Assembly (NCBI GenBank): GCA_964631865.1
Contig: CAZWAK010000020.1
Location: 3,587-67,586, forward strand
Reading direction: 5' to 3'
Source of the DNA: an uncultured Heliobacteriaceae bacterium
GTDB lineage: Bacteria > Acidobacteriota > Blastocatellia > RBC074
Length of the DNA stretch: 64,000 bases
Part shown: positions 2,754 through 38,908 of the stretch, in pieces
Layout of the letters: every line of letters begins with the position of its first letter
How positions within the stretch are numbered: position 1 is the stretch's first letter
The notes under the pieces: model-generated
Databases searched by the model: none
What the model saw: the letters and a program-made list of their open reading frames with translations, nothing else
What the model was told of the DNA's origin: nothing
Position numbers and translations under genes: made by a program

Positions 2754-3730
2754 CGCGCTCGCCAAGCTTTGTGCCTGCGTTGTTGCGCCACGCGCCATGG
2801 CTGTTGTTCATCGCCGTGCTCGCGGTTTTCAGTTTGCTTGCGCCGCGTTTTCTGGCGGGCAACAATTTCCTCAACATCCTCGTGCAATCCGCCGCGACGA
2901 CGATTGTGGCGACGGGAATGACGTTTGTGTTGCTCACGGCGGGCATTGATCTGTCGGTCGGTTCCGTGATGTTCGTCGCGGCGGCGTTGGCAGGCAAATT
3001 GGTCTTGAACGGGCAACCGTTGTGGCTGGCTTGCGGGGTGATTTTACTGACCGGCGTCTTGTATGGCGCAGTCAACGCGCTGTTCATTACGCGGCTGCGT
3101 GTCATCCCGTTCATTGTCACGCTGGCGACGCTGTATTTCGGGCGCGGCTTGGGATTGTGGATTACAGAAACGCGCGCGATGAATTTGCCGGATTCCATCT
3201 TGCGCATCGGCACGGCCAGCCTCGCAGGCATTCCGTTCCCTGCCTTGATGCTCGTAGTTGTCGTCGTCATCGCGCACATCGTGCTGACACGCACGTCGTT
3301 CGGTCGCCAGATTTATGCGCTCGGCAATGACGCCGATGCGGCGCGCAAGGCGGGCATTCGCGTCGGGCGCATTCAATTCGCCGTGTATGTCATCAGCGGC
3401 GGCTGCGCGGCGCTCGGCGGACTTGTCTCCATCGCGCAACTCGGCGCGGTCTCTCCAACGTTCGGCAATCAACGCGAATTTGCCGCGATTGCGGCGGCAG
3501 TGCTGGGCGGCGTGAGTTTGTTCGGCGGCAGAGGCGCGGTGTTGCCAGGGATATTGCTCGGCGCGTTGCTGATTCAAACGATTGAAAATGGTTTGGTGAT
3601 CGCCAACGCCGATCCGTACCTCTATCCGTTGGTGATGAGCGCAATCATCTTTGTGGCGGTGCTGGTCGACAGCTTGCGCAACCGGCAACTGCAACGCGCG
3701 CAACGCCGCAAGGTGCGCGCGGCGGCATAA
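2750..3730 (+). CDS. Sugar ABC transporter permease (RbsC family)
   Basis: GMTFVLLTAGIDLSVGS and AAVLGGVSLFGGRG motifs. Confidence 0.9.
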   Translation: MTRSPSFVPALLRHAPWLLFIAVLAVFSLLAPRFLAGNNFLNILVQSAATTIVATGMTFVLLTAGIDLSVGSVMFVAAALAGKLVLNGQPLWLACGVILLTGVLYGAVNALFITRLRVIPFIVTLATLYFGRGLGLWITETRAMNLPDSILRIGTASLAGIPFPALMLVVVVVIAHIVLTRTSFGRQIYALGNDADAARKAGIRVGRIQFAVYVISGGCAALGGLVSIAQLGAVSPTFGNQREFAAIAAAVLGGVSLFGGRGAVLPGILLGALLIQTIENGLVIANADPYLYPLVMSAIIFVAVLVDSLRNRQLQRAQRRKVRAAA

Positions 3731-4674: not shown

Positions 4675-5343
4675 ATGGAATGTCGTGTTGTTATCAGTTC
4701 TCTGTCTGATTACCTTGATGGTTCACTGGCCAACCAAGAGATTCAGTCCATCGAAACCCACCTAAGCCATTGCGCCCCTTGCGACACCGTCAAAGCCGAT
4801 TTATCGCAGATTTGTCTGGCCGCGAAGGAATTGCCGTTGCGCACGCCGCCGCGCGCGTTGTGGGCACGGATTCAAAACGAAATCGAGTTGGAGGCGGCAG
4901 GGCCGGGAAAGCAGACCGAAAAAAAAGCCCGCAAGGCGAGTTGGTGGAAAAGCCTGAGCGAGCGCCGCTTTACCTTCACATTACCCCAACTGGCCGGAGC
5001 CAGCGCGTTGGCGTTTTCGTTGATGGTCTTCGGGATGTATCACGCCCTGCACCGCGACCCGACCGTGGCGACGGAAGCCGCCGCCAGTGCGCTGTCGCCG
5101 CTGGAGACCGAGATGCAGTCGAAGATTCAACAAAAGGCGAACTTCCTCAACACTCGTCGCCAGGCGTGGAATCCAGAGATTAGAACGGTGTATGATACCC
5201 ATCTGCAACGCATTGACAGTTCGCTCAATCGCGTGCGGCAAACGCTGGTCACGATGCGCGATCAGGATCAGCAAAAAATGTTGATGGATTTGTACAACGA
5301 GAAACTCCAACTCATGGAAGATTTCGAGAAAATTGAGAAGTGA
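4675..5343 (+). CDS. Zinc-finger anti-sigma factor (zf-HC2) with single TM helix
   Basis: LSDYLDG...HLSHCAPC (HxxxCxxC) and a TM segment, immediately after the ECF sigma. Confidence 0.85.
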   Translation: MECRVVISSLSDYLDGSLANQEIQSIETHLSHCAPCDTVKADLSQICLAAKELPLRTPPRALWARIQNEIELEAAGPGKQTEKKARKASWWKSLSERRFTFTLPQLAGASALAFSLMVFGMYHALHRDPTVATEAAASALSPLETEMQSKIQQKANFLNTRRQAWNPEIRTVYDTHLQRIDSSLNRVRQTLVTMRDQDQQKMLMDLYNEKLQLMEDFEKIEK

Positions 5344-5346
5344 ATT

Positions 5347-6054
5347 ATGCCGGGAAAAAACCTGTTGTTTAGTTTGGTGTTGTCGGCTGGCTTGAGCGCG
5401 GTCGCCCCTGCTCAGGATTTCAGCAAATCGTTCAAGGTCTTGCCCGATTCCGGGTCGCTGGAAATCAAAACCAAAATGGGGTCGGTGACGGTCGTTCCAG
5501 CCGAAGGCAATACGATTCAAGTATTGGCCAGACGCGCGGGGAACAGCGTGACGGCGTCGCAACCTTCGCCGCAAGGCAAGGTTCATGTCGAAGTCACCAG
5601 TGACGCACCCGTTGACCTCATCGTCAATGTTCCATCCAGCACGTCTTTGGATGTGTTTTGTGTGAAATGTTCGGGCGGCGTGATCGTGCGCGGCTTGCGC
5701 GGAGCCATCAAGGTCAATAACACAGATGGTGACATTCAATTGACCGGGCTTCGCAGCTCGCAGGTCGAAGCCCGTAGCATGAGCGGGAACGTCAGCTACA
5801 GCGGTGAAGTGCTTCCCAGCGGCAGCTATTATCTGAAATCCTTTTCAGGTCGCGTGGACGCTGCCTTGCCAGCGGGAGCCAAATTCAAACTGGATGCGAC
5901 GTCTGGGCGTGGCGGCATTGAACTCGCGCCGGGCGAGTTTCAGTTAACCGTGCATAAGCAAACATCCCACTTAGTCCAGGGATTGGTAGAGTCAGCCACT
6001 GCGACCGTAACCTTATGGACGCAGGATGGCAGCATTCGAGTGCGTAAGAAATAA
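5347..6054 (+). CDS. Secreted DUF4097/adhesin-like beta-repeat protein
   Basis: Signal peptide and repeated beta motifs (GAIKVNNTDGDI, ARSMSGNV, LKSFSGRV, DATSGRGGI). Third gene of the sigma/anti-sigma operon. Confidence 0.7.
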   Translation: MPGKNLLFSLVLSAGLSAVAPAQDFSKSFKVLPDSGSLEIKTKMGSVTVVPAEGNTIQVLARRAGNSVTASQPSPQGKVHVEVTSDAPVDLIVNVPSSTSLDVFCVKCSGGVIVRGLRGAIKVNNTDGDIQLTGLRSSQVEARSMSGNVSYSGEVLPSGSYYLKSFSGRVDAALPAGAKFKLDATSGRGGIELAPGEFQLTVHKQTSHLVQGLVESATATVTLWTQDGSIRVRKK

Positions 6055-6057
6055 CAA

Positions 6058-6096
6058 AGCGTGTACGGCGGAACATCTTGCCCTGCCGTACACGCT
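6058..6096. terminator. Hairpin between convergent genes (probable bidirectional terminator)
   Basis: Perfect 12-bp IR AGCGTGTACGGC (6058-6069) / GCCGTACACGCT (6085-6096). Confidence 0.65.
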
Positions 6097-6120
6097 CTTT
6101 CGCTACTCTCTCTTTCGCCA

Positions 6121-8559
6121 TTATCCGCCCATCTGCGCCGCGACTTCCTGCATTCTTGCCTTGACGCCGCGGTACTGCACATCAATCGCATAAATTTCCG
6201 CGAACGTTTCGTAGGCGTCTTTGAATTCGCCCATCGCGGCGTACGCTTCGGCCAAATCGTACCGCAAGGCTTGATAGGCCCCCTCATCGCGCAGCGGAGC
6301 CTCCAGGGCTTTTTTGAGCCACACGACCGCCAGACGCGGCAGTCCTTTTTGTGCAAAGCAAAACGCAAGCATGTTGCAGCACGAAACATAATGCGTATGG
6401 GCTGGATCGCTCATAATCGCCTTGAACGCCTGTTGGAACTCTTCAATGGCCTCATCGAACATATCCATTTCCTTGTAGGCCAGCCCCAAATTGTAATGCG
6501 TGTCGAAGTCTTCCTGCGGGTTGTGCTGTTCGGTTTCTGCTTTGAATTCATCCAGGAAATCCAGCAACTCACCCATCTCGTCGCCGGCAAACAAATCGAA
6601 TGAATTACCGGCAGGAGAGGCCGATGGCGCGGGCGTGGATGGCGCTTCCGACCACGCGACGGCGGGCGTCTCGGACAATGAGTTTGTCGAGATGTTCGGC
6701 GTAGAATGGCGCGGTTGCGTCACGAGAATTGTCGCCTCTTCGGCGTCTTGGGCAGGCGGCGAAGCAAGGTAGCCGGTGGCAACGTCTTGCAAACCGAACG
6801 AACTCACGGCGGGCACTTCGGGAACGATTTGTACTTCCGTTGCCACGACCGCCTGGGAGTCCAGAGAAATCGCTTCGACGACGTCAATTTGTTGGTCGGG
6901 CGCAAGAACGGTTTGCGCGTTTTGGGCCTCCGCTTGTTGCAGTTGGGCCAATTTGGCTTTGACTTCAGGAGCCTGTGGATATTGTGCCGCAATGGATTCG
7001 AGCGTGTAGCGCGCCACATCCAGCATCCCTTGATACAGATAAAAATCTACGCTCTCCAACTCATCCCGCAAATTCGCTGTAGACGAACCGGCCACTGCGA
7101 CGTCCACGGCCTCCGGCACGACGCTGAAAGAAGGAACTTCCGTTTGCACTTCCATCGCCTGGTCAGACGAGTGTGCATCCCAGGCACCTTGCGGCTCAGT
7201 ACGCGACTCAGCCCCCTGAGTGGCCTCTTCCGCTAGAACGGAATAGCGAGAGACGTCGGCGGTCGCTTCGGGCTGCAACTCCTGGAAGGTTGAAGGCTCG
7301 TCTTCCGACTGATCCCAAAAATCCATGCCAGCGTTCGACGCGCTGGGACGTTCATACCCTGCCCCATACGATTCGGAGGGCGGCTCTGCCTCTTCTCCCA
7401 CCAATTGGCGCAACCGCCGTCGGTGTTGAATTTCATCCGGCTCCAATTCGAGCAGCCGTTTGAGGGCGCTGACGGCGGCGGGTTCGCTGCCCGTTTGTAG
7501 AGCGGCGTCTGTAAGCAAGTTGAGCGTCTCGACCAGCAAATGATCGTCGTGCGTGTGTTCATACACTGCCGCGAGCCGTGTCAGCGCGCCCAGATGTTGC
7601 GATTCGACGGCCAGGACATCGCGGAGCAATTGGGCGGCTTTTTCTTCTTCCCGATATTCGTACAGAATTTCCACGACCCGATCAAAGACGCGCAACGCGC
7701 CCATCGCATCGTGTCGCTGCACATAGGAATGACTGAGGTCTAACGCATACTGATAGCGTGAGCGCGCGGTGTGGAGCATTTTCTCAATCGTTGTCTCTGC
7801 CGCTTCCAGTTTCTGTGCCGACTGATAAATGCGCGCCAACAGCGTCAGCAACTCGGCGTCGTTTGGTCGTTCCTGCAGCAGCCCTTCGATCAACTCGACA
7901 GCGCTTCCGGTCTCTTCTCGTTCGAGGTACAAATTCACTGCCGAAGCCAGCGCCGCCTGTCCACGTGGCTGCGCTTTGATGGCGCGCAGATACGTTTGCA
8001 GCGCCTCCTGCTCTTTGTTTTGCCGCCGCATCTCGCCCGCCGCCAGCAGGAAGGTGTCGTACGCCTTGTCGTTTTGATTTTCGCGCAGGAACGCTTCGGC
8101 CAGCTTGATTTGCACAGCCGTGTTTTCAGGATCGAGGTCGGCAATTTTCTGATAAATCTCCAGCGCCTGTTGGCTCTGGCCTTCGCGGATGTAATGCTCT
8201 GCCACACTCAAGTATTGATGCCGTGCGTCTACGATCAATTTCTGCTGCGCATATAACCCCGCCAGCTTCAGCGACACGTTAATGTTGCCGCTGTCGAGTT
8301 TGCTGACCTTTTTCAGCATGGCGATGGCCTTGAGGTAAAAACCGCTGACCCGATAATGCTCGGCGATGTGCATGAAGCTGGCAATGGCTTCGCTCGTTTG
8401 CCCGACTTTCACGTACAAATCACCGAGTGTGTTGAGGGTGGTCACGTCGGAAGGATCGGCCTGCGCGATTTGGCGATATTCTTCAATCGCCGATTGATAT
8501 TTCCCTTGCTGAACGTATTTGGAGGCTGTCTTGAGTGCTTTGGCTTTATTGAATGACAT
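6121..8559 (-). CDS. Large TPR protein (N-terminal TPR array, acidic linker, C-terminal TPRs; SgmX-like architecture)
   Basis: Start MSFNKAKALK at ATG 8559. TPR repeats such as TLNTLGDLYVKVG and C-terminal THYNLGLAYKEMDMFDEAIEEFQQA. Confidence 0.85.
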   Translation of the reverse strand: MSFNKAKALKTASKYVQQGKYQSAIEEYRQIAQADPSDVTTLNTLGDLYVKVGQTSEAIASFMHIAEHYRVSGFYLKAIAMLKKVSKLDSGNINVSLKLAGLYAQQKLIVDARHQYLSVAEHYIREGQSQQALEIYQKIADLDPENTAVQIKLAEAFLRENQNDKAYDTFLLAAGEMRRQNKEQEALQTYLRAIKAQPRGQAALASAVNLYLEREETGSAVELIEGLLQERPNDAELLTLLARIYQSAQKLEAAETTIEKMLHTARSRYQYALDLSHSYVQRHDAMGALRVFDRVVEILYEYREEEKAAQLLRDVLAVESQHLGALTRLAAVYEHTHDDHLLVETLNLLTDAALQTGSEPAAVSALKRLLELEPDEIQHRRRLRQLVGEEAEPPSESYGAGYERPSASNAGMDFWDQSEDEPSTFQELQPEATADVSRYSVLAEEATQGAESRTEPQGAWDAHSSDQAMEVQTEVPSFSVVPEAVDVAVAGSSTANLRDELESVDFYLYQGMLDVARYTLESIAAQYPQAPEVKAKLAQLQQAEAQNAQTVLAPDQQIDVVEAISLDSQAVVATEVQIVPEVPAVSSFGLQDVATGYLASPPAQDAEEATILVTQPRHSTPNISTNSLSETPAVAWSEAPSTPAPSASPAGNSFDLFAGDEMGELLDFLDEFKAETEQHNPQEDFDTHYNLGLAYKEMDMFDEAIEEFQQAFKAIMSDPAHTHYVSCCNMLAFCFAQKGLPRLAVVWLKKALEAPLRDEGAYQALRYDLAEAYAAMGEFKDAYETFAEIYAIDVQYRGVKARMQEVAAQMGG

Positions 8560-20582: not shown

Positions 20583-21611
20583 TTAGAGTTCAGGCAAATT
20601 GACGTTGCGCACGCCCAACACGCCTTCGGTCAGACATGCCGTGAAACAATCCACGACACAGGGATCGAACTGCGTGCCTGCCGCGTCTTGCAGGCGTTGG
20701 ACGGCTGTGTCCTGCCCCATACCAAGCCGGTACGGACGATCTGACGTCATGGCATCGTAGGCATCCACGACGGCGATAATCCGCGATTCCAGTGGGATTT
20801 CTTCGCCCGCCAGTTTGCCCGGATACCCACGTCCATCCCACCATTCATGATGGCGCAGCACCAATTCGCTGATGCGTTTGAGACGCGGGATTTTGACCAA
20901 CGCTTCATAGCCCCGAATCACGTGCTGATCCATGATTTTTTTCTCCCGCTCATCCAGCCGTCCCGGTTTCTGCAAGATGGCTTCCGGCACGCCAATCTTG
21001 CCAATGTCGTGCAACAAGGCGGCCAGCTTTAACTCATAAATCGAGTCTTCTGTCAGCCCCAGACGCCGTCCGACTTTGGCAACAAAATTCAAGACCGCGC
21101 CGGAATGTTCGCCCGTATAGTTATCTTTCGCGGAAAGCAACGACGCCAGCGCCAACAACACGGAAGAATTGGTTTCTTCCAGTTCCTGATGCAACAGGCG
21201 ATTGGTTTCCCGAATTTCGAAGGTCAGCAACACGTTCTCAATGACGTTGAGGAGTTCGTGTTCACTGAAGGGTTTGAGTAAATACGCCGCCAAGCCACGC
21301 GTGAACAACGAGCGTTGTTCCGCTAAGCTGGCCTGACGCCCGGTCAGCATGACGACCGGAATGCGCTTGGCACGGGCGGCGTCTTGTTGGAGGACAAGCA
21401 AATCAAAAACTTCTTTGCCTGTCATATCCCGAAGGGAATAATCCAGTAAAATTAAATCTACCTGGTGTTCTGCAACGATTCTCAAGGCTTCCTGTCCGTC
21501 CTGCGCGGTGAGGAAACGATAGCCGGCTTTCACTAAAATGATCTGCCCGACTTCGAGTTGCGACGGATCATCGTCCACCCAGAGAACCTGCTTGTTTGCG
21601 TGAGGGTGCAT
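20583..21611 (-). CDS. Response regulator receiver + HD-GYP phosphodiesterase (RpfG-like)
   Basis: REC domain (WVDDD, LILLDY, MLTG, LLKPF). HD-GYP motifs HDIGKIG, HHEWWDGRGYP, DAYDAMTSDRPYR. Start set to ATG 21611. Confidence 0.9.
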   Translation of the reverse strand: MHPHANKQVLWVDDDPSQLEVGQIILVKAGYRFLTAQDGQEALRIVAEHQVDLILLDYSLRDMTGKEVFDLLVLQQDAARAKRIPVVMLTGRQASLAEQRSLFTRGLAAYLLKPFSEHELLNVIENVLLTFEIRETNRLLHQELEETNSSVLLALASLLSAKDNYTGEHSGAVLNFVAKVGRRLGLTEDSIYELKLAALLHDIGKIGVPEAILQKPGRLDEREKKIMDQHVIRGYEALVKIPRLKRISELVLRHHEWWDGRGYPGKLAGEEIPLESRIIAVVDAYDAMTSDRPYRLGMGQDTAVQRLQDAAGTQFDPCVVDCFTACLTEGVLGVRNVNLPEL

Positions 21612-22262
21612 ACAATGGTTCCTGGTTGAGGCAGAGCTCAGCGGGATACAACTGGAGCCGCCGTGATTGATGGAGGACTTCACTCTTTGTCTTGGACAAA
21701 ACCGGCTTTTTATCCCACGACCAGTTTTTTCCTGGGAGCGTTTGGAAGCAAATGTGTGTAGGAGAGGAATGAACGATATGCAGCCAGACGAAACGTAGTT
21801 CGTTGATGTCAAGATCAAGTGTTACGTTAGGACTTCGGCAACCCCAGTGAATGCAAGGGCACGACCGTTGATTCGTAAACTATCCAAACCATCTCCGCAG
21901 ACCGCTGTGAAGCCAGACTTACAGGAAGGGCAAAGCACACTCGTGAATCCTGTAAGGCGTAGGTGTCTATCGTTGGTAGAAAGGCAAGAAGGCGGGCGAT
22001 TCTACTGTTTCGGAAATAGCAGAACCAATGAACTCCTTCTCGAGTTAGTAGGGCACAATGAATTTATAACTAATAGGGGTACTGGATATTTAAATCAGCT
22101 ACCAACGCGGGGGAGTATAACCAGCGCCTTTTCACCTGGCAAGACAATCTTCAGGCGCTGTGTTAAAACTCCCTGCCGAAGCGGATTTTAACTGAGTCAG
22201 TGGAAGAATTACTCGAAGACAAAAGCCGCGCCTCTTTTTCCGCCCGGAGTTTTTTTGCTTGC

Positions 22263-29464: not shown

Positions 29465-31609
29465 TTACTTCTTTTCCGCTGCTTTCATCGCGGGCAAATA
29501 CATCCGCTCGGCATATTCCTTGACCATCCGCCGCGCGCTGAACGCGGGTGCGCCGTACTTGATCGCGGCTTTCATCACCTGCACCCAACCGCGCGGGACG
29601 CCGTCGGAATCGCGGTCGTAAAACAACGGCACGACTTCGCGTTCGAGCGTGGTGTAGAGCGATTCGGCATCGGCGGCATCGCGTTCTTCTTCGTTCATCT
29701 CAATCATTGGATCAGAACCGATCACCCAGCCGTTTGTGCCGTGATAGCCTTCGTACCACCAGCCGTCGCGCACACTGAAATTCGGCGCACCGTTCAGCGC
29801 GGCTTTCATCCCGCTCGTGCCGCTGGCTTCGAGCGGCGGACGCGGATTGTTCATCCACACGTCCACGCCGTGATACAGATGTTTGGCGACCAGGATGTCA
29901 TAATCTTCGACAAACGCGATGTGCCCGCCCATCCCGTAATCGCGCGCCATTTCGTAGATATTGTGAATCAGATTGCGCCCCGGCGCATCGTCCGGGTGCG
30001 CTTTGCCCGCGAAGACGATTTGCACGGGACGCCACGAATCTTGCAGGATTTTCTTCAGCCGCTCAATGTCGCGGAAGGCCAGCAACGCGCGTTTGTAGGT
30101 GGCAAAGCGGCGCGCGAAACCAATCGTCAACGCTTCGGGATCGAACAGCGTGCCCGACGCCAGCGCGTGCGTTGCGCCTGTGCCTTCGACCATCCATTTG
30201 CGGCGCGCGCGTTCGCGCATAAAGCCCATCAATTTGGCGCGCAGACGTTGATGCAAACTCCACAATTCTTCGTCCGGGATTTCGTCAATCCGTTCCCAAA
30301 ACTTCGGATCATCGTGCTGCCGCAGCCAATCCTGACCGAGGTGCTTGGAATACAAACGGCTCAACTCCGGCGCGAGCCACGTCGGCACGTGAACGCCGTT
30401 TGTGACGGAAGTGATCGGCACTTCGTCCGCCGTTTTTTCCGGCCACATCGGCTGCCACATTTTGCGCGAGACAACGCCGTTGAGTTGGCTGACGCCGTTG
30501 TATTGCCCCGTCAAACGCAAGGCGAGCGCGGTCATATTGAAATTTGTGCCGCCGCCGAAATGGTCGTTGTACGCCCCGAGCGCGAGGAAATTTTCGCGGT
30601 TGATGCCGAGTTGATCCCAGTAGCCCGCGAAGTGCTTTTCGATGAGGCTGAATTGAAACGTGTCGTGACCCGCCGGCACAGGCGTGTGCGTGGTGAAGAT
30701 GCTGGTCGCGCGCACTTGTTCGACCGCGTCGTCAAACGAAGTGCCAGCCTCGACCAATTCGCGAATCCGTTCGAGCAACAAAAACGCCGCGTGGCCTTCG
30801 TTCGCGTGATAGACGACGGGGTTCAACTGCAACGCGCGCAGCATCCGCACACCGCCGATGCCGAGCAGCATTTCCTGCATCAGGCGTGTTTCCCGATTGC
30901 CGCCGTACAAGCGCGAGGAGAGTTCCCGATCCCAGGGCTGATTTTCTTCGACGTCGGCGTTCATCAACACCAACGAACCCGATCCGAGTCGCACGCGCCA
31001 CACGGCCACGTAAATGTCGCGCCCGCCGAGAAAAAATTTGAGCGGCCCGCTCGTGTCTTTTGTGAAGACCGGTTCTAACGGCGCGGTCGAATAATCGAGT
31101 TGCAGGTAATGCGCTTCCTGCTGCCCGGCGGCAGAAATCTTTTGCTGAAAATAACCTTCGGGGTAGACGAAGCCGATGCCGACAAACGGCAAGCCGAGGT
31201 CGCTGGCTTCTTTGCTGTGATCGCCGGCCAAAATCCCTAAGCCACCCGAATAGATCGGCAGCGAATTGTGGACGCCGAATTCGGCCGAGAAATAGGCGAT
31301 GGTGCGATCTTTGAGGTGCGGATAGGTTTCGGGAAACCAATCGCCCTGGCTCGAAAGCTCGCGCTCGAACGACAACAGCACGCCATCGTAGCGGCGCAAA
31401 AAGGCGGGATCACTGGCGGCGGCGTCCAAGCGGGCGGGCGCGATTTGCCGCAGCAATTTCACCGGATTATTTTGCGTCAACGCCCAAAGCGTTTTGTCGA
31501 GATATTGAAACAGGGCGCTGGCATCGGGGTTCCAGCTCCACCACACGTTGTAAGCCAGTTCGCCTAACCGCCCAATGCGCGGGGGGAGTTTGAAATTTTG
31601 ATAACTCAT
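29465..31609 (-). CDS. glgP: Alpha-glucan (glycogen/starch) phosphorylase
   Basis: AYFSAEFG, YSGGLGILAGDH, NEGH, FTTHTPVPAG, FARRFATYKR, EASGTSGMKA (PLP lysine). Confidence 0.95.
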   Translation of the reverse strand: MSYQNFKLPPRIGRLGELAYNVWWSWNPDASALFQYLDKTLWALTQNNPVKLLRQIAPARLDAAASDPAFLRRYDGVLLSFERELSSQGDWFPETYPHLKDRTIAYFSAEFGVHNSLPIYSGGLGILAGDHSKEASDLGLPFVGIGFVYPEGYFQQKISAAGQQEAHYLQLDYSTAPLEPVFTKDTSGPLKFFLGGRDIYVAVWRVRLGSGSLVLMNADVEENQPWDRELSSRLYGGNRETRLMQEMLLGIGGVRMLRALQLNPVVYHANEGHAAFLLLERIRELVEAGTSFDDAVEQVRATSIFTTHTPVPAGHDTFQFSLIEKHFAGYWDQLGINRENFLALGAYNDHFGGGTNFNMTALALRLTGQYNGVSQLNGVVSRKMWQPMWPEKTADEVPITSVTNGVHVPTWLAPELSRLYSKHLGQDWLRQHDDPKFWERIDEIPDEELWSLHQRLRAKLMGFMRERARRKWMVEGTGATHALASGTLFDPEALTIGFARRFATYKRALLAFRDIERLKKILQDSWRPVQIVFAGKAHPDDAPGRNLIHNIYEMARDYGMGGHIAFVEDYDILVAKHLYHGVDVWMNNPRPPLEASGTSGMKAALNGAPNFSVRDGWWYEGYHGTNGWVIGSDPMIEMNEEERDAADAESLYTTLEREVVPLFYDRDSDGVPRGWVQVMKAAIKYGAPAFSARRMVKEYAERMYLPAMKAAEKK

Positions 31610-31665
31610 ACTTGGTTTTGTCTTTCCTGGATTGAGTAAAAACGCGCGGGCATAGTTGATGGGTG

Positions 31666-31709
31666 CATCAATCTTTCGTCAATCGGTCGTCAATCGGTCG
31701 TCAATGAGC
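31666..31709. promoter_or_regulatory. Four 11-bp direct repeats (core TCAAT) in the divergent glgP / DnaJ-TPR promoter region
   Basis: CATCAATCTTT CGTCAATCGGT CGTCAATCGGT CGTCAATGAGC. Confidence 0.55.
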
Positions 31710-32037
31710 GGAGAATGTACCGAACCACTTTGCAACCGTCAACCTTTTCCTTGCGATACGGAAAATCGCTACCAGCAATCGCATCTTTGTTGTAAACTCC
31801 CGGCTTCAGAGTTACGAAGTATCGCAGTACGCCTTGAGACAGGAACTCAAGCAGGCCCCCTAAGACGAGATTACCTTAGAAGCCATTTGAAAAGTTTTCG
31901 CAGCATGGGCAAACCTGCCCGTCCGCCGTTCCCCGCAACGGTCTTTCGCTCGCAACGAGCCGGGTTCTTCCGGCAGCGGCTGCGCGCGCGCCGCTCGTGC
32001 TGTATACATTTTCAATCGCTTCTCCACACGAGATTCG

Positions 32038-33783
32038 ATGTACATGACTTTGAAATTCTCACCAACAGGCGTCCTCACGACGACTCCGTTTGTTGAACTG
32101 GCAGGTGTAATTCATCGGCAACGATTGACTGGGAGTTTATATCTCAGCGACAGCCGCACGGAACGGCGGGCCGAACGGGTCGTTTATTTTTCGCACGGCG
32201 AAGTTTATGCCGCGGCCAGCAATCTGGCCGTAGATTCGGCGCTGGCACTCTTGCTGCGCGCGGGGCGGGTGACACAAGAACTGGCCTTGCGCATCCAAAA
32301 TGAGGTGTCCGCCGGACGTTCGTTCAGCGAGTTGTTAGTCAAATATGGGTGTGTCACGCGCGACGAGTTGAATCAATTGCGCATCGAGCACGTCAAATCC
32401 ATTTTTAATTCCCTGTGCGAATGGACGAACGGCGAGTATCGCTTCACCGAAGGCAGCCAAATCGCGGGCGGGCGGCTCGGCGTCAGCACAAAGGCTTTGC
32501 TGATTGAAGGGGCGCTGGTGTCTGCCGTGCCGCTGCGCTTCAGGGAACTCGTCGGCGATGGGCGCACGTGGGTGTCCGCCGATCAGTCCGCGACGCCCGA
32601 TTTGACGCTGCAACCGTTTGCGTATTTCCTGCTGAGTTGTTTGAGCCAACCGCGTAACCTCGTCGTCCTGACCGAAAGCGGCAGAATGGATGAGAGCGAT
32701 CAAGAGGTCTGGCAACAACTGTACGGTTTGGCGGCGGCAGGACTGGTAGATTTCACGACGGCTTTGAGTCCGGCAGAAAATCCGCTGCTGACTGGGGTCG
32801 AAACGCAAGATGCGCTGATCGCCAAAGCCAAAGCGCAACGACCGGCGGCTCCCCCTGTCCAGAAGTCGTCGGAACCTTGCACGGCGCTGGCGTTCCCGTT
32901 GCATGAAGACCCGGAAACGGCGAAGCGGCGACGGCTGGAGGCCATCAAACGCGATATCAAGCAAATGCGCCAAACGCTTTCGTCGTCCAATGACGATTAT
33001 GCGGTGCTGGGCTTGCAGGCGGGCGTGACGCCCTATCAGGTCAAACATGCCTATCGCAACCTCGTCAATCACTATCATCCCGACCGGCATCACGCGCATT
33101 GCGATCCGATCACGCTGGCGACGTTGAGCGATGTCTTGATGGCCATTCGCGCGGCGTACGAAACCGCCATCGAACATGCCCTGCTCGCGGAGATCATCAG
33201 CAATCACTCTCCGCGCTCTAAAGCGATGCGAAACTCCCAGCCGATGGCGACTGTGGCTCAGCCTCCGGCTCCGCCGCTCTCCTTTGAGCAACGACGAGCC
33301 GAGCGGAAAGCCGTCGAGACCATGCGCAACCAATCGCTGGCCGAACTCAAGCATCGCAAAGCGTTGTCGCACCAAACGCAGGGCGAATACGAAGCCGCCA
33401 TCCGGTTGTTGACCGATGCCGTCACGCTCGTGCCCGATTGCGCGCGTTATCACGGCGATCTCGCGGCGTTGCTGGAAAAAGTTCCCATGCGCCGTGAACA
33501 GGCCGAACACCATTTGTTACGCGCGACCGAGTTGGAACCGAGTAATTTGTATTATCATCTGCAACTCGGAACCTTTTATCGCGCCGCCGGGATGCTTTCG
33601 CGCGCCGAGCAGCAGTTCGTGCTGGCGCTCAAACTCGATCCCGTAGATCGCGCGGCGGCTTCGGCTCTGGAAGAAGTCGTCAGCTTGAAGAAAGCCCAGC
33701 TTGCCAACGCGCAGTACGGGCAAAAGCGCGCTCCCAAAGGACAAGGATTCTGGGCGCGACTTTTTAATCGGAGCGTGCAGTAA
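32038..33783 (+). CDS. DUF4388-like N-terminal domain + DnaJ (J) domain + TPR protein
   Basis: N-terminal TGSLYL...VYFSHGEVYAA...WTNGEYRF. J domain DDYAVLGL...YRNLVNHYHPDR. C-terminal TPRs. Confidence 0.85.
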   Translation: MYMTLKFSPTGVLTTTPFVELAGVIHRQRLTGSLYLSDSRTERRAERVVYFSHGEVYAAASNLAVDSALALLLRAGRVTQELALRIQNEVSAGRSFSELLVKYGCVTRDELNQLRIEHVKSIFNSLCEWTNGEYRFTEGSQIAGGRLGVSTKALLIEGALVSAVPLRFRELVGDGRTWVSADQSATPDLTLQPFAYFLLSCLSQPRNLVVLTESGRMDESDQEVWQQLYGLAAAGLVDFTTALSPAENPLLTGVETQDALIAKAKAQRPAAPPVQKSSEPCTALAFPLHEDPETAKRRRLEAIKRDIKQMRQTLSSSNDDYAVLGLQAGVTPYQVKHAYRNLVNHYHPDRHHAHCDPITLATLSDVLMAIRAAYETAIEHALLAEIISNHSPRSKAMRNSQPMATVAQPPAPPLSFEQRRAERKAVETMRNQSLAELKHRKALSHQTQGEYEAAIRLLTDAVTLVPDCARYHGDLAALLEKVPMRREQAEHHLLRATELEPSNLYYHLQLGTFYRAAGMLSRAEQQFVLALKLDPVDRAAASALEEVVSLKKAQLANAQYGQKRAPKGQGFWARLFNRSVQ

Positions 33784-33806
33784 CGCGATTTGGCAAATCG
33801 CGCTAC
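33780..33806 (-). repeat. Single GTAG-type REP element
   Basis: Reverse complement GTAG-CGCGATTTG-C-CAAATCGCG-TTAC, the same palindrome as the 55222 array. Overlaps the stop codon at 33781-33783. Confidence 0.75.
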
Positions 33807-33831
33807 CTTTTCTGAGGAGAACCAAAGTTTC

Positions 33832-34443
33832 ATGCAAGGTCAGCGCATTCTTACCGCTGAAGTCAACGCCGAACAAATTGCCCGCCAGGTAGTCGAAGCG
33901 CAATTGACGGAACTGGCCGCCGAAATAGATCAAGTCGAAGGCTACACAAATCCGCACGGCACGTTTTTGGCCCGGATGGCGGAAGTTCTGGGCGCGCATT
34001 TCGGTCTGCGCGAGGGCGATTTGCTGGCGCTCAAACACGCCGCGCTGGCCCACGATTTAGGCGAGCGCGTGATGAAGCGCGAATATTTTGCGCGGCGCGG
34101 CGAATTGACCTGGGACGAACGGTTCGATTTGTGGCGGCATCCGATTTTAGGCGAACAGGCCGCCGCGCAACGCGAATTGCCACGCCAGTCGCAACTGCTG
34201 ATCCGCTGGCATCACGAATGGTGGAACGGACGCGGCTACCCCGACAATTTGGCGGGCGAGGCGATTCCGCTCGGCGCGCGGATTCTGCGCGTCGTGGATA
34301 CCTATAGTGCCTTAATCTCAGATCGTCCGCACCGCGAATCGTTTGACGAAGCGGTGGCCAAACAGATCATCGCGGACAGTGCCGGGATTGAGTTCGATCC
34401 GCGCGTGACAAAAGCGTTTCTCGAACTCGCCGCGAAACAATGA
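33832..34443 (+). CDS. Stand-alone HD-GYP domain protein
   Basis: [42 protein letters not shown] before ATG 33832; the ORF-track start lies inside the REP. Confidence 0.85.
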
Positions 34444-34474
34444 ACTCCCCCATGAACGCCCAACGATACTCGCT

Positions 34475-35386
34475 ATGAAAAATCGCCGCTGGCTGGGCTA
34501 CGAGCTAAGCGTACTCCGCCGCATCAAGTTCAATTCGATTGCCATTCCCTTCTCCGGTCAGCCCGATCTGGATTGGTATCTCAAGTTTTGGGGCAAACAG
34601 ATTTTCAGCAACGACCTGTGCCAATGGGCGTGGTGGACGTCGCGCGCGCTGGTCGAAAACCAGCAGGAATCCCTGGGCGAAGAGGAAGTCGCACAAATTT
34701 TGCACAACGCCTACGTGCCGCGCCGCCGCCTCAACAATCCCGCGCTGGCGCAAACGATGAGCGAGATGGATGCCTGGTGGTTCGACAACGTCTGGCTCAA
34801 CATTCAGCAAATCGAAAACCCGCATCAACGCGCGCTGGCCTATTATCACGCGCTCGGCGTGGGCGATTACGTGCATTCGTTTACGCCCGAAACGGCAGAG
34901 TTGCGGCGTCCGCTCTCGGAAGTCTTTGAAGACCTCTGGCGCAGTCAGCGCAAAGTGCAAAACAACGAAAAGGAAAATCGCAGTTCCAATCTCGAAGCGA
35001 ATGAATTCATCGGCACCGCCCGCACCGATTTGATGTTCGCGCATTTTCCCCACCCGGACGGCTTAGTCGCACAAACGCATTCGGCGATTGGCTGGCGTGA
35101 GACGTGGGTGCGCGGTTCGGCCAGCGGCTTTGCCGAATTGCTGGCGCGGCTCAACGGGCTGGGCGATTACATCGCTTCCAAAGGGCGGTATCTGGATCTG
35201 GTCAGCAAATTCCTCGAAAACGCCAAACATATTCCCAAATGGGCCATCGCGCACCCGGAAGACGGCTTCATCACCGCGGCGGAGATGGGCGAATTGATTA
35301 AGACCTTCCGCCCCGTCGAAGTCACCTACGCGAAAGATTTCTCCGAAATCAGCGGCGGACTGAACACGTACATCATTGTGGCTTGA
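34475..35386 (+). CDS. DNA adenine methyltransferase-fold protein with degenerate catalytic motif
   Basis: PFSG (motif I-like), IFSNDL, WFDN.W..I, and SNLEANEF...DLMFAHFPH where DPPY is expected. Confidence 0.55.
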
Positions 35387-35418
35387 GTTGAGTGTTTTCG
35401 ATTTTAGCTGACAGGCAA

Positions 35419-35450
35419 AATCTCAAATTTCAAATTTCAAATCTCAAATC
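35419..35450. repeat. Heptamer tandem array (AATYTCA x4.5), same family as 23820
   Basis: AATCTCA AATTTCA AATTTCA AATCTCA AATC, 3 nt before ATG 35454. Confidence 0.85.
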
Positions 35451-35453
35451 TTC

Positions 35454-36302
35454 ATGAGCTTGCACGAAGACAATCAGCGCTTGCGCGAAGAACGCGATTT
35501 GTTGCGGCGGCGCTTGGCTGAATTGGAAGAAGGCTTCGCACACAGCAACAGGGAAGTCTTCGCGATGAACGAGGCGCTGGTGCAGATGAATGCGCGACTC
35601 AGCGAATTGGATCGCATGAAAGACACGTTTCTTTCGATGATCACGCACGAACTGCGCACGCCGATGACCGCGATGATCGGCCTCGCCGAAAACCTCGAAG
35701 CCGGTGTCTACGGCCCGCTCAACGAAACCCAAACCGAGACGCTGCACAAGATCATCGAAAGCGGCGGACGGCTGCGCCAACTCGTCAACGATTTGCTCGA
35801 CCTCTCCAAAATGGAAGCCGGTGCGATGCGCTTGCAACGCGAACCGCTTGATCCGCGCACGCTGGTCGAAGCCGTGATTTATCAATTGGAATCACTCGCC
35901 GAAGCAGGCGGCGTGAAGCTCGTCAATCGCGTCGGCTACGATCTGCCCGAAGTGGATTGCGACGGGCAACGCATCGAACAGGTGTTGACGAACCTCATCA
36001 GCAACGCGCTGAAATTTACGCCGCCGGATGGGAGCGTGACGATTTCTGCGGCGACGCAAAATGATTTTGTCGTCTTCACAGTCACGGACACCGGTTGCGG
36101 CATTCCGCCCGAATCGCAGGCACACATCTTCGACAAATTCATTCAGCTTCATCCGAACCGCGATGATCGCACGAAAGGCACAGGGCTTGGGTTGGCCATT
36201 GTGCGGCATTTGGTGGAACTGCACGGCGGCAGCGTGAGCGTCGAAAGCGAAGTCGGGCAGGGCAGCCGTTTTTCCTTCCGCCTGCCAATTTCGCAACAAT
36301 GA
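35454..36302 (+). CDS. Cytoplasmic histidine kinase (coiled coil + HisKA + HATPase_c)
   Basis: H-box [10 protein letters not shown]-box [11 protein letters not shown]1 DTGCGI, F-box IFDKF, G2 GTGLGLAI. No TM or sensor domain. Confidence 0.92.
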
Positions 36303-36398
36303 ACGCGCCGCGAAGGCCGTCATTTGCAAACTCGTTTCCTCGCTATTATCATCCCGGTTTCATTTCTGACCGTTATTTAAGGCAACAAAAGGAAACTC

Positions 36399-37799
36399 AT
36401 GGCAGAGACTTACGACGTTACAATCATCGGCGCGGGGCCGGGCGGTTATACGGCAGCAATCCGCGCGGCACAAGTGGGCTTGAAAACCGCGATTATCGAA
36501 CGCGACTCGCGGCTCGGCGGCACGTGCGGATTGCGCGGTTGCATTCCGACCAAAGAGTATTTGCACTCCGCGCATCTCGCCGACACGATGACGCACGCGG
36601 CGGAATTCGGGATTGAAGTGCCGGAGTACAAAATCAATTTCGAGAGCGTCTACCAACGCAAAAACAAAATCGTAGATCAGCTTGCCAAAGGCGTCGCGTT
36701 CCTGATGAAGAAGAACAAAATCACCGTCTTCACCGGACAAGGCAAGCTCGAAGGCAAAGGCAAAGTTTCTGTCACTGATGCGAACGGCAAAGTCGAAACG
36801 ATTGACACGAAGAACGTCATCATTGCGACGGGTTCTGCGCCGCGTTTGTTGCCCGGCTTGGAAGTGAACGCGCCGCGCGTCGTGACGAGTGATGAATTGC
36901 TCGAACTGCGCCATATCCCAAAATCTATGGTCGTGCTGGGCGCAGGCGCAGTCGGCGTCGAATTCGCTTCGGTGTTCGCGCATTTCGGTAGCGCCGTCAC
37001 GATTATTGAATTACTGCCGCGCATCGTGCCGATTGAAGACGAAGACATTTCCAAAGAACTCACGCGCGTTTTCAAGAAACGCAAGATCAACGTGCTGACC
37101 GACACGCGGTTTCAATCCGCGAAAGTCAACCAAGACGATGTCGAACTCACCTACGTGGACAGCAAAGGTAAGGAAGGCAAAATCACTTGCGAAACGTTGC
37201 TGGTTGCGACGGGACGCCGCGCCGTCACCGATGGCTTAGGCGTCGAAAGCACGAAGATTGAAATGGAGCGCGGCTACATCAAGGTAGATGAGTTGATGCG
37301 CACCGCTGAGCCGAACCTCTACGCGATTGGCGATGTGATTCCGACGCCGTGGCTTGCGCACGTCGCGGCAAAAGAAGGCTGCGTTGCTGCTGAACATATC
37401 GCGGGCAAAAATCCGCGCCCGGTCAATTACAACCTCGTCCCAAATTGCACCTACTGCCATCCCGAAATCGGCAGCGTCGGTTTGACCGAAGCGAAAGCCA
37501 AAGAAAAAGGCTACGAAGTCAAGGTCGGCAAATTCCCGTTCACGGCGCTCGGCAAAGCCAAAATTCTGGGCGAGACAGATGGCTTCGTGAAAGTGGTTGC
37601 GGATGCGAAATACGACGAAGTGCTCGGCGTTCACATCATCGGCCCGCACGCGACCGATTTGCTCGCGGAAGCCTGCGTCGCGATGGGCTTGGAAGCGACC
37701 GCCGAAGAACTCGGTCACATTATGCACGCGCATCCGACGCTGTCTGAATCGCTGATGGAAGCCGCCGAAGACGTGCATAAAATGGCGATCAATATGTAA
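36399..37799 (+). CDS. lpdA: Dihydrolipoamide dehydrogenase (E3)
   Basis: GAGPGGY, GGTCGLRGCIPTK redox disulfide, ATGS, GAGAVGVE, HAHPTLSE. Confidence 0.96.
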   Translation: MAETYDVTIIGAGPGGYTAAIRAAQVGLKTAIIERDSRLGGTCGLRGCIPTKEYLHSAHLADTMTHAAEFGIEVPEYKINFESVYQRKNKIVDQLAKGVAFLMKKNKITVFTGQGKLEGKGKVSVTDANGKVETIDTKNVIIATGSAPRLLPGLEVNAPRVVTSDELLELRHIPKSMVVLGAGAVGVEFASVFAHFGSAVTIIELLPRIVPIEDEDISKELTRVFKKRKINVLTDTRFQSAKVNQDDVELTYVDSKGKEGKITCETLLVATGRRAVTDGLGVESTKIEMERGYIKVDELMRTAEPNLYAIGDVIPTPWLAHVAAKEGCVAAEHIAGKNPRPVNYNLVPNCTYCHPEIGSVGLTEAKAKEKGYEVKVGKFPFTALGKAKILGETDGFVKVVADAKYDEVLGVHIIGPHATDLLAEACVAMGLEATAEELGHIMHAHPTLSESLMEAAEDVHKMAINM

Positions 37800-37817
37800 A
37801 TTACCCTAAGTGAGGCT

Positions 37818-38687
37818 ATGCAAATCTTTGATCAGACAATCCAAGGAGTTCTCAGTCAAAAGCTGGATGAATTGGAGGCAAACTTTGGGTCAGACGTGAT
37901 TTTTTACTTTGGGGAAATCCATCCGTATTTTGAGAAATCCTTCCGGGACTTCATTGAAGATTTGAAAGCCGAGCAGCCCCATCAAAAGCGGCTGACCGTT
38001 ATTCTTAATACTCCCGGTGGAAGCGTGGAAACCGTCGAAAAAATGGTGGAGATCATCCGCTTCCATTACTCAGAGGTGTATTTCGTTGTCCCTGATTTTG
38101 CGATGTCGGCAGGAACGGTTCTTTGCATGTCTGGGAACAAAATCTTCATGGATTACTCCTCATCCTTAGGGCCAATTGACCCCCAGGTTTTCAATGGCAA
38201 AGAGTATGTTCCCGCTCTGGGGTATTTAGATCAGGTTGAGCGGTTATTGCAAAAAGCACAGAATGGAACGATTACTCAGGCCGAGTTCTTGATTTTACAG
38301 AATCAAGATTTGGCAATGCTCAGCCGCTATGAGCAAGCCCGCAATCTAACCATCACTTTGCTGAAAAAATGGTTGGTTGAATACAAATTCAGCGATTGGG
38401 TTGCCCACCAAACAACGCCGAGTAAACTAGGGCAACCTGTCACGCTGGAGGAAAAAGAAGAACGAGCCGAAGAGATTGCCAGGCTTTTGGGCGATAACAA
38501 AATCTGGCACTCGCACGGAAGAATGATTAGCGCCATTACCTTGCGCAAGGTTCTCAAATTACAAATTGAAGATTACTCAGATAATCTCGTCCTCAGAAAT
38601 TTGATTCGGTCGTATAATGACCTTCTGATTGAGTACATCAATCGGAGCGGCCTCAAATTCTTCTTGCACAACAGAAAATATTTTTAA
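37818..38687 (+). CDS. Clp-fold serine protease (SDH_sah/SppA-like)
   Basis: LNTPGGSVETVE, AMSAGT (catalytic Ser), SSLGPIDPQ, WHSHGRMIS. Visibly AT-rich. Confidence 0.82.
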   Translation: MQIFDQTIQGVLSQKLDELEANFGSDVIFYFGEIHPYFEKSFRDFIEDLKAEQPHQKRLTVILNTPGGSVETVEKMVEIIRFHYSEVYFVVPDFAMSAGTVLCMSGNKIFMDYSSSLGPIDPQVFNGKEYVPALGYLDQVERLLQKAQNGTITQAEFLILQNQDLAMLSRYEQARNLTITLLKKWLVEYKFSDWVAHQTTPSKLGQPVTLEEKEERAEEIARLLGDNKIWHSHGRMISAITLRKVLKLQIEDYSDNLVLRNLIRSYNDLLIEYINRSGLKFFLHNRKYF

Positions 38688-38701
38688 GCGAAAGGGCAAA
38701 T

Positions 38702-38908
38702 ATGAAGATCGAAGAACGCATTCAAGAGGCGATTACAAAGACTGAAGCATCGTTGAATAGCAACCCTGAGTTTCTCAAATTGCGGGAATTCTACTTGGAA
38801 ATGAAGGAAGCGGGAGTTGCTCAAAAACAAGAATACACCTTACCCCCACTCGACACTTCGGGACGGCGATTGCACGAGATGACCGTTAGTAAAATAACAA
38901 AGAAATAA
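38702..38908 (+). CDS. Small hypothetical protein (68 aa) coupled to the protease
   Basis: Starts 14 bp after the protease stop and shares its AT-rich composition. Confidence 0.6.
   Translation: MKIEERIQEAITKTEASLNSNPEFLKLREFYLEMKEAGVAQKQEYTLPPLDTSGRRLHEMTVSKITKK

Follow-up and report, generated by a model that had tools for sequence, protein, structure and literature searches.

The window analysed here is a stretch of 64,000 nucleotides (positions 3,587 to 67,586, forward strand) of contig CAZWAK010000020.1 in assembly GCA_964631865.1, from an uncultured bacterium named as a member of Heliobacteriaceae and placed by GTDB in the class Blastocatellia of Acidobacteriota. At 34475..35386 on the forward strand it carries a gene, single copy in its genome (8.36 Mb, 377 contigs), with an ATG start and an open reading frame (ORF) of 303 aa. 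Its product, hereafter the target, is probably a catalytically dead descendant of the D12-class methyltransferases that acts as the obligate partner or regulatory subunit, or as the fused C-terminal domain, of an HD-GYP phosphodiesterase devoid of a sensor. The predicted partner is encoded immediately upstream at 33790..34443 (forward strand) and is a stand-alone HD-GYP protein of 217 aa without a sensor domain (HD_5, E 3e-26). For the target family we observed homology to these methyltransferases together with a Rossmann fold, loss of motifs IV and X, loss of basic charge, strict adjacency to an HD-GYP gene, repeated fusion and class-wide conservation.

The METHYLTRANSFERASE-likeness of the target is one on which curated libraries are blank and deeper comparisons are unambiguous. 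Searches of Pfam and NCBIfam returned no family at E<=1, PF02086 (MethyltransfD12) included, comparison of the sequence with the PDB gave chance-level matches only (ribosomal protein S13, E 0.02, and fragments of a designed repeat protein, E 0.001), and PADLOC yielded only weak Type II methyltransferase matches (E 2.8e-5, 20.6 bits). A word-indexed search recovered 603 relatives. The 120 of them that were listed are without precomputed Pfam domains, and those bearing a name are called 'hypothetical protein' except for P0113, which one source labels 'adenine-specific DNA methylase'. A profile of 40 close relatives (A1) run against 1.84 billion protein representatives produced 549 matches at E<=0.001, with PF02086 proteins being retrieved at E 1e-28 to 1e-14. 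When 48 of these matches were scanned with Pfam, 19 contained PF02086 and 12 had an N-terminal HD-GYP domain with the target domain C-terminal to it. Direct comparison by hhalign of A1 with a set of nine DPPY-bearing D12 proteins (A2) gave 99.8% and E 8.3e-30 over 300 columns.

The fold agrees with this picture. The AlphaFold2 (AF2) model of the target has a predicted local distance difference test (pLDDT) score of 93.3 and a predicted template modelling (pTM) score of 0.90, and its best Foldseek matches are E. coli Dam, Mcbe1, DpnM and T4 Dam (E 2.7e-5 to 1.4e-3, TM about 0.45/0.53). An aligner independent of Foldseek, VIA, recovered many class I S-adenosylmethionine (SAM) methyltransferases at Z 14-16 over about 150-165 residues, with root-mean-square deviations (rmsd) of 2.4-3.4; the best of them, a SAM methyltransferase, has Z 16.2, rmsd 2.7 and 154 aligned residues. 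By AF2, VIA and Foldseek alike the target has the class I Rossmann fold of SAM methyltransferases. The ESM Atlas places it beside clusters of its own from Acidobacteriota, followed by those of D12 proteins. The target is thus clearly a homologue of the D12/Dam-class N6-adenine methyltransferases that lies outside the curated Pfam model. The initial annotation had compared the order of the segments PFSG, SNDL and N.EAN....DL with that of adenine DNA methyltransferases and had anticipated a Rossmann fold; the strings are present in that order, and both the profile and the structural comparisons bear the likeness out.

The D12 enzymes (PF02086; E. coli Dam, DpnM, T4 Dam and the M.FokI-like two-domain forms) are accordingly among the closest known systems, being homologous to the target over ~300 columns and sharing with it the Rossmann fold, a helical insert after strand 2 and the strings PF.G, ND, (A)L(I/V)EN(N/Q), NNG..N, DL.(Y/F) and HIP.W. 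Unlike them, the target has neither DPPY nor YxGSK, is not basic, has no Pfam match at E<=1, and in the loci examined its family is never found beside a nuclease and always beside an HD-GYP. The only PF02086 match of the same genome (locus L082, 1369-2376, reverse strand, corresponding to G000:C138) is a canonical 335-aa D12 protein with YIGSK, FAGTG, ND and DPPY; its BLASTP match to the target covers only 36 residues (E 2e-4).

Examination of individual motifs shows what was retained and what was lost. In the target IPFSG occupies residues 24-28, FSNDL 44-48 and NLEANEF... about 172-196. In the close family motif I is kept (F26 in 40/40 and G28 in 39/40, in the form F-S/A-G-Q-P), as is motif II (N46 and D47, 40/40), along with the further D12 strings (A)L(V/I)EN(Q/N), NNG..N, DL(M)(F/Y) and the HIP.W strand; altogether 43 columns are invariant among the 40 sequences. 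The position of motif IV is occupied by H190-F-P-H193 (190-193), which stands opposite DPPY in an ungapped reading; an alternative hhalign placement sets H190, or R, on the D of DPPY with two residues inserted. Position 190 is R in 31/40 and H in 5/40 of the close relatives and position 193 is R in 31/40 and H in 1/40, the last being the window protein itself, while P192 and G196 are found in 40/40. The tetrapeptide HFPH, which had been read as the replacement of the catalytic motif, is therefore a local variant of a RFPRPEG consensus: the absence of DPPY stands, but HFPH itself is not a feature of the family. A (D/N/S)PP(Y/F/W)-like tetrapeptide was found in 0/40 close and 0/38 diverse members, so no orthologue retaining DPPY came to light in either set. 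In the diverse set, which includes fused and very divergent forms, motif IV reads RLPR, DLPA, NLPA, ALPS, QFPL and the like, with only P192 being general. Motif X, (Y/W)xG(G/S)K, is likewise gone, the target having NRRWLG there, with no Lys; the corresponding YxGSK (Y13, G15, K17) is invariant in the nine D12 enzymes of A2 and aligns to tkWtGGK of DpnM.

The absence of motifs IV and X from every member examined supports, as far as sequence can tell, the catalytic death of the target family. Its combination of lost catalytic residues with strong conservation is that of a pseudoenzyme, and the proposal of the initial annotation that the protein is one gains further from its near-universal presence in the class (see below). 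In the diverse members the Gly of motif I and the Asp of motif II are replaced in several cases (FCDEPT, FWTEAR and ADLSDP for the former, NH and NS for the latter), and the last Gly of the FxGxG form of motif I is absent also from some true D12 relatives. The residues kept in at least 90% of the 38 diverse members are mostly hydrophobic: L14, L36, K37, N46, W102, Y132, F136, L147, F178, P192, W211, Y239, W256, R279, Y285 and D288.

These patterns bear on the quite unlikely alternative that the target is an active SAM-dependent methyltransferase with a substrate other than DNA, such as the HD-GYP, the kinase, the STAS protein described below, GMP, pGpG or cyclic-di-GMP (c-di-GMP), in which case the adjacency would reflect an enzyme-substrate or pathway link. 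In its favour, class I methyltransferases acting on O or C atoms need no DPPY. The close family also keeps F26 (40/40), G28 (39/40), D47 (40/40) and the N172-x-D/E174 stretch, together with the invariant polar residues R15, R16, E61, N62, R145, N164, E209, K236, H260, E270, R279, K287 and D288, and a GNAT domain on the HD-GYP in 6 loci hints at a theme of modifying enzymes. Against such an activity, motif X is lost, and G28 and D47 are replaced in several of the diverse members, for which reason SAM binding cannot be a family-wide conserved function; moreover, the residues that are kept family-wide are mostly hydrophobic or placed at the predicted interface with the HD-GYP (Y132, F136, L147, D288).

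Contextual information from genomic neighbourhoods ties the family to the HD-GYP. We gathered 80 species-representative loci, of which 76 have at least 700 nt of sequence upstream of the target gene (L035, L060, L067 and L076 were dropped). An HD-GYP gene lies upstream on the same strand in all 76, and in 75 of them at most 150 nt separate the end of its frame from the target gene or the two are fused, the exception being L008 with a gap of 855 nt; two of the 76 loci (L050, L061) are in-frame fusions. What follows the gene is variable by comparison. In the window the next gene (35454..36302, forward strand) encodes a histidine kinase of 282 aa with a coiled coil, HisKA (3.2e-22) and HATPase_c (5e-34), for which a Pfam scan found no sensor or membrane domain. 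The placement of the target between an HD-GYP gene and a sensor-less kinase, as initially described, is hence correct for the window, but only the HD-GYP side of this signalling operon is constant in synteny. Where at least 900 nt are available downstream (68 loci), a sensor-less kinase is found in 30, a STAS protein with an FHA-GAF-SpoIIE (PP2C) phosphatase in 18 (checked with Pfam in 4 and assigned by tblastn likeness in the remainder), OsmC in 5, DUF4127 in 3 and none of these in 12. The histidine kinase is a variable neighbour outside the conserved core. Neither the window ORFs nor Pfam scans revealed a nuclease-like gene near the target, in keeping with the reported lack of a restriction gene, and there is no adjacent nuclease or specificity gene such as would point to a defence system, the neighbours being the HD-GYP, the kinase, a DnaJ-TPR protein and lpd.

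The partner HD-GYPs beyond the nearest relatives mostly bear an acidic low-complexity tail of 100-250 residues rich in E, Q, P and S, long examples being L018 (4811-5896), L073 (4734-6002) and L095 (4921-7122). In 6 of the 50 extended HD-GYP frames scanned this tail ends in a GNAT acetyltransferase domain, placed just before the methyltransferase-like gene (L014, 4092-5966, as well as L021, L048, L054, L055 and L056). An OsmC-like gene lies downstream in five of these six loci, L021 having no room to tell.

Two families of Blastocatellia have the two domains joined lineage-wide; the open frames measure 746 and 659 aa in the first family and 539 and 555 aa in the second. The 526-aa protein P0273 was verified as an HD-GYP+target-domain fusion; a public fragment is 100% identical to it, and full-length relatives that are 64-71% identical are labelled Chloracidobacterium sp. 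These relatives are named only 'HD domain-containing protein' or 'hypothetical', and their precomputed Pfam domains are PF13487 and PF01966 only. A second verified fusion, P0274 of 733 aa, has a P/Q/S/T-rich linker of about 230 residues, and the linker of its family is low-complexity sequence of the same kind as the tails of the partner HD-GYPs. An AF2 model of the natural 526-aa fusion has a pLDDT of 80.7 and a pTM of 0.79, high for two domains as far as overall scores go. In a quick tree of 58 domain sequences the label 'fused' changes 6 times, at least 4 of the changes being forced by well-supported branches, which indicates repeated fusion or fission. This tree and the quick tree of HD-GYPs mentioned below carry Shimodaira-Hasegawa-like approximate likelihood ratio test (SH-aLRT) support only and have midpoint roots.

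The phyletic distribution of the family is likewise distinctive. It was found in 278 of 301 sampled Blastocatellia genomes, a tally that includes three unpublished genomes (G128, G197, G284), and in 246 of the 262 of high quality. Within the class, family-level counts are 73/78, 132/132, 13/14, 50/51 and 9/9, and in four small Blastocatellia families it was not found (0/1, 0/3, 0/7, 0/5). A phylum-wide sample of 301 genomes gave 28 strong matches, the genome of the window (G000) included, all of them in Blastocatellia; the ~270 genomes from other classes in this sample yielded only weak partial matches in four, with E of 1e-12 to 1e-16, a level at which true D12 enzymes would be expected to match. 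The target family is near-universal in Blastocatellia and essentially absent from the phylum samples of other classes.

Outside Blastocatellia the profile search also recovered proteins of ~315 aa that lack both DPPY and any Pfam match, with YLPDPAG, YLPSPAG, YPPTPEG and similar strings. One such distant subgroup (A7) matches A1 at 99.9% and E 1.5e-31 over 307 columns, with its [FL]PxPxG replacement motif aligned gap-free. A metagenome scan with A7, one of three DPPY-less subgroups beside the P0199-like and P0204-like ones, found 6 loci, of which 3 were read with enough flank, L102 being left unread with the same match figures as L101. In all 3 a stand-alone HD-GYP gene of 192-214 aa (HD_5, E 1e-37 to 1e-40) overlaps the start of the methyltransferase-like gene. 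In L101 the gene directly after the pair (4957-6678) encodes a PocR-GAF-GGDEF diguanylate cyclase, which puts this module beside c-di-GMP synthesis. In the quick domain tree the DPPY-bearing group forms one side of a branch with support 98; a single loss of DPPY is thus compatible with the midpoint-rooted tree.

Prediction of the complex provided a structural counterpart to the genomic linkage. With user alignments A4 (HD-GYP, 34 rows) and A1 (target, 40 rows) as inputs, the HD-GYP/target pair reached an ipSAE of 0.91 in 3/3 runs with 72-79 contacts, at least 96% contact agreement and partner pLDDT of at least 91, compared with 0.00 for the best of 3 controls. In calibration the mark for this score was reached by 116/157 solved complexes and 2/215 mismatched pairs, a calibration that holds only roughly with user alignments. 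The HD-GYP contributes W145-P160, i.e. the GYP loop, residues 195-208 (A-G-I-E-F-D-P...K) and a handful of positions within 108-136 to the predicted interface, and the target contributes 2-12, Q29 and D31 of the motif-I loop, F38, 128-160 in the helical insert and 288-294 at the edge of strand 6. The model supports binding of the target to the HD-GYP without showing it. The reading of the target as a protein-binding signalling module, one of the options in the initial annotation, is supported by these scores together with the 76/76 adjacency and the fusions, which also point to the upstream HD-GYP as the partner.

A second of those options, a DNA-binding module, is disfavoured. Here the target would be an adaptor, anchoring the phosphodiesterase on DNA or recognizing methylated sites, a role for which descent from a DNA methyltransferase and a helical insert that is the counterpart of the target-recognition region could speak. 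Yet the DPPY-bearing relatives have a median isoelectric point (pI) of 9.3 and a net charge of +11, while the target family has fallen to a median pI of 7.1 and a charge of 0, the window protein to pI 6.0 and -5, and the distant DPPY-less group to a charge of -15.5. Moreover, the helical insert furnishes the main predicted protein-protein contact, and many partner HD-GYPs carry long acidic tails. We consider a DNA adaptor very improbable and the least likely of the options that had been raised.

The scenario that we consider most probable is the following. A D12-class (Dam/M.FokI-like) N6-adenine DNA methyltransferase would have lost catalysis and been bound as an obligate partner to a single kind of sensor-less HD-GYP, being fused to it as a C-terminal domain in some lineages. 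In the predicted complex its residues 2-12, 29, 31, 128-160 and 288-294 would sit against two parts of the HD-GYP, the GYP loop (145-160) and the last helices (195-208). We infer that the dead methyltransferase may be the regulatory or adaptor module missing from this HD-GYP: acting where the GYP loop flanks the substrate cleft, it could set or gate phosphodiesterase activity, and it could also, or instead, couple the HD-GYP to the lineage-variable downstream proteins, namely the histidine kinase or the STAS protein and PP2C phosphatase. That the GYP motif of RpfG is needed for its contacts with GGDEF proteins, and that the GYP loop borders the substrate cleft, are both described in the PmGH study (PMC4159591).

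Several observations weigh against this interpretation and temper it. The predicted interface of the target is not significantly more conserved than other residues (0.776 vs 0.728, a value reached by 1442/10000 random subsets). That of the HD-GYP is (0.81 vs 0.62, reached by 9/10000), but as it consists of generic motifs of the domain, the GYP loop and G.xFDP, its conservation is not specific evidence. The predicted binding itself comes from one family of models and from genomic context, and the low-complexity linker of ~230 aa in one fused family means that fusion alone requires no tight complex. The (near-)invariance of F26 and G28 in motif I and of N46 and D47 in motif II of the close family is the pattern expected of a Rossmann pocket that is active or binds a ligand, and implies that 'dead' refers to adenine-N6 chemistry but need not extend to every kind of catalysis. 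Lastly, the HD-GYPs of the distant pairs fall outside the clade of Blastocatellia partners in the quick tree, which thus does not support a single ancient origin of the pair. Two more specific ideas were set aside. The conserved C-terminal GIEFDP of the partner HD-GYP is not peculiar to its subfamily, as unpartnered paralogues of the same genome also have G.xFDP; and the notion that the target supplies in trans a lysine missing from the HD-GYP (see below) finds no support, since the predicted interface excludes E92 and the metal site.

The partner HD-GYP is unusual in its own right. HD-GYP domains are rarely stand-alone and usually lie C-terminal to sensor domains, according to a survey of the domain (10.1101/2021.11.05.467447). 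With 92.8 bits in a 219-aa frame the partner ranks last in both length and score among the nine HD_5 matches of the genome, which also has 16 GGDEF and 6 EAL matches. When mapped on PmGH (4mcw), the metal ligands H56, H88, D89, H117, H141 and D170 are present in 34/34 partnered HD-GYPs and H142 in 33/34; Y150 of GYP is found in 34/34, and RxY[K/R] reads R..R (R179/R182). The partner thus has both the metal ligands and the HHExx(D/N)GxGYP signature by which a c-di-GMP phosphodiesterase is recognized. It has Y52 at the position of E185, a position whose residue marks the binuclear HD-GYP type according to section 6 of the survey (10.1101/2021.11.05.467447).

The lysine of HDxGK (PmGH K225), by contrast, is missing from every one of the 34 partnered HD-GYPs, where Glu (32), Leu (1) or Ser (1) takes its place; it is likewise never Lys in 16 fused proteins, and 3 distant partners have Gln. 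The position of PmGH D308 is Asp in only 5/34 partnered HD-GYPs. Lys occupies the K225 position in 4/4 aligned solved HD-GYP chains, 5/7 genome paralogues and 16/20 unrelated HD-GYPs. Gln at this position in 3 of those 20, whose context is unknown, indicates that loss of the Lys is not exclusive to partnered proteins. A quick tree of HD-GYPs with 56 rows, from which one paralogue with a short match was dropped, united the partnered and fused Blastocatellia proteins in one split with support 100, apart from the other paralogues of the genome; five rows labelled 'other' fall inside this split, and their HDxG(E/L) motif fits.

Among those paralogues, one is encoded in the window itself, 13 kb upstream of the pair (20583-21818, reverse strand); its 411-aa ORF scores higher for HD_5 than any other in the genome (149.9 bits), keeps the lysine in HDIGK and has no methyltransferase-like neighbour. 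Four others, on contigs C84, C49, C275 and C286, lie in frames of 810-920 aa with a GGDEF match ~0.7 kb away and are HD-GYP/GGDEF composites, two of them with RD in place of HD.

An HD-GYP that lacks both the HDxGK lysine and the D308-equivalent Asp may be a receptor, and the pair might then consist not of a phosphodiesterase and its regulator but of a receptor for c-di-GMP, or another nucleotide, with the dead methyltransferase providing its output or serving as an adaptor domain. PmGH is described as losing its activity on either substitution, K225A or D308A (PMC4159591); the lysine is found in 0/34 partnered, 0/16 fused and 0/3 distant proteins as against 4/4 solved chains, and Asp at D308 in 5/34. 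A non-hydrolysing HD-GYP receptor, DvhD, has moreover been described (PMC13090378). DvhD, however, is reported there to have lost its metal ligands, and these are all present in the partner family (H142 in 33/34, the others in 34/34) along with Y150 and R179/R182; HD-GYPs with Gln for the Lys also make up 3/20 of the unrelated ones. On balance the receptor view seems unlikely.

Should the HD-GYP be a phosphodiesterase regulated by the target, as we favour, the nature of the signal becomes a question. In a special case of our interpretation the target would be a small-molecule sensor, whose pocket binds SAM, S-adenosylhomocysteine (SAH) or another adenosyl compound without catalysis and tunes the HD-GYP allosterically, so that methyl-cycle or nucleotide status would be linked to c-di-GMP. 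It would suit such a role that motifs I and II, on the adenosine side, survive whereas motif X, on the methionine side, and the catalytic motif IV are lost, and that the HD-GYP itself is without a sensor domain. Residues 29 and 31 of the motif-I loop are at the predicted interface, and occupancy of the pocket could therefore be felt by the HD-GYP. That divergent members have degenerate motifs I and II argues in the other direction. The old cofactor pocket might still hold a SAM/SAH-type adenosyl ligand; we regard the sensor as possible but doubtful. A bolder version combines this with the missing lysine: the Lys-less HD-GYP would be weak or inactive by itself and the dead methyltransferase a prozyme-like activator as well as a SAM/SAH sensor, tying c-di-GMP breakdown to methyl-cycle status. 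This combined version, too, appears unlikely.

The wider neighbourhood of the pair in the window is a run of five genes on the forward strand, with spacings of 6, 31, 67 and 96 nt. It begins with a DUF4388-DnaJ-TPR protein identified by Pfam (32038..33783), whose gene ends 6 nt before the HD-GYP start, and ends, after the kinase, with lpd for dihydrolipoyl dehydrogenase (36399..37799). The DUF4388-DnaJ-TPR gene is possibly in the same operon as the HD-GYP; among the species loci only the nearest relatives (L001-L012 and L064) have it in that upstream position, and it hence looks like a lineage-specific addition to the module. A terminator scan of 31500-38900 gave 10 sites against 12.7 expected from shuffled sequence, and thus neither supports nor breaks an operon. 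Abutting the start codon of the kinase is a tandem repeat of 7 nt (35418-35454, consensus AAATTTC, 5.1 copies, score 51), and the relatives L001, L003, L005 and L006 have runs of (C/T)NAAATC-like heptamers in the same place, ~ten in L003; the repeat could be a leader or a regulator site of the kinase gene. Beyond lpd, a gene for a ClpP-like SDH-type serine protease (37818-38687; PF01972, E 5e-15) intervenes before the E2 gene, in a patch of low GC (0.44-0.49 vs about 0.56-0.60 around it). In L001, L002 and L005 the E2 gene directly follows lpd with no ClpP-like gene between, which suggests that the latter is a recent insertion into a 2-oxo-acid dehydrogenase cluster.

Parts of the proposed arrangement have precedents. 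Dead paralogues that serve as partners of enzymes are known, as in METTL14 and DNMT3L. Prozymes such as the TbPRMT1 prozyme (10.1101/776112) are described as having a methyltransferase fold without catalytic residues and working by binding another enzyme; there, however, the enzyme bound is an active paralogue that shares the fold, whereas here it would be an unrelated metal-dependent phosphodiesterase. In RpfG (REC-HD-GYP), as in the predicted pair, a protein partner engages the GYP loop (contacts at 145-160 in our model; PMC4159591, quoting Ryan et al. 2010/2012), but the partner of RpfG is a GGDEF protein, while here it has a methyltransferase fold, the pairing is fixed by adjacent or fused genes, and the HD-GYP has no receiver domain. 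PmGH (GAF-HD-GYP) and DvhD (PAS-HD-GYP) resemble the pair in that an accessory domain controls or reads c-di-GMP (PMC4159591; PMC13090378). They differ in that the accessory domain is here C-terminal or separate and derived from a DNA-modifying enzyme, and its predicted seat is the GYP loop and the last helices rather than an N-terminal stalk.

In full-text searches no listed paper connected HD-GYP with a methyltransferase-like domain or with Blastocatellia, and the main text of the HD-GYP survey (10.1101/2021.11.05.467447), supplements aside, has neither 'methyltransferase' nor 'Acidobacteri'. Pseudo-enzyme partners and GYP-mediated contacts are of known kinds; a partner derived from a DNA methyltransferase and locked to an HD-GYP is a new form of them.

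Among c-di-GMP phosphodiesterases the HD-GYPs are the class that is less well understood, with no clear picture of what controls them when no sensor is attached. The target defines an unannotated protein family, with no Pfam or NCBIfam model, whose database entries read 'hypothetical' or, in the case of fusions, carry an annotation of the HD part alone. As this family is genomically locked to one HD-GYP subfamily, it offers a concrete and testable partner for the GYP loop; its near-universal presence in Blastocatellia and its fusion to the HD-GYP in the cultured genus Chloracidobacterium place the idea within reach of the bench. The subfamily of HD-GYPs thus delineated has all metal ligands and yet is without a residue that is essential in the model enzyme. 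For annotators there is a warning that the label 'adenine-specific DNA methylase', already attached to P0113, is misleading for these genes. More generally, the family would illustrate how the fold of a DNA methyltransferase can be reused for second-messenger signalling. If the target is indeed an activator and sensor, then a whole bacterial class, as well as unrelated bacteria with the two-gene module, would tie the breakdown of c-di-GMP to the status of the methyl cycle.

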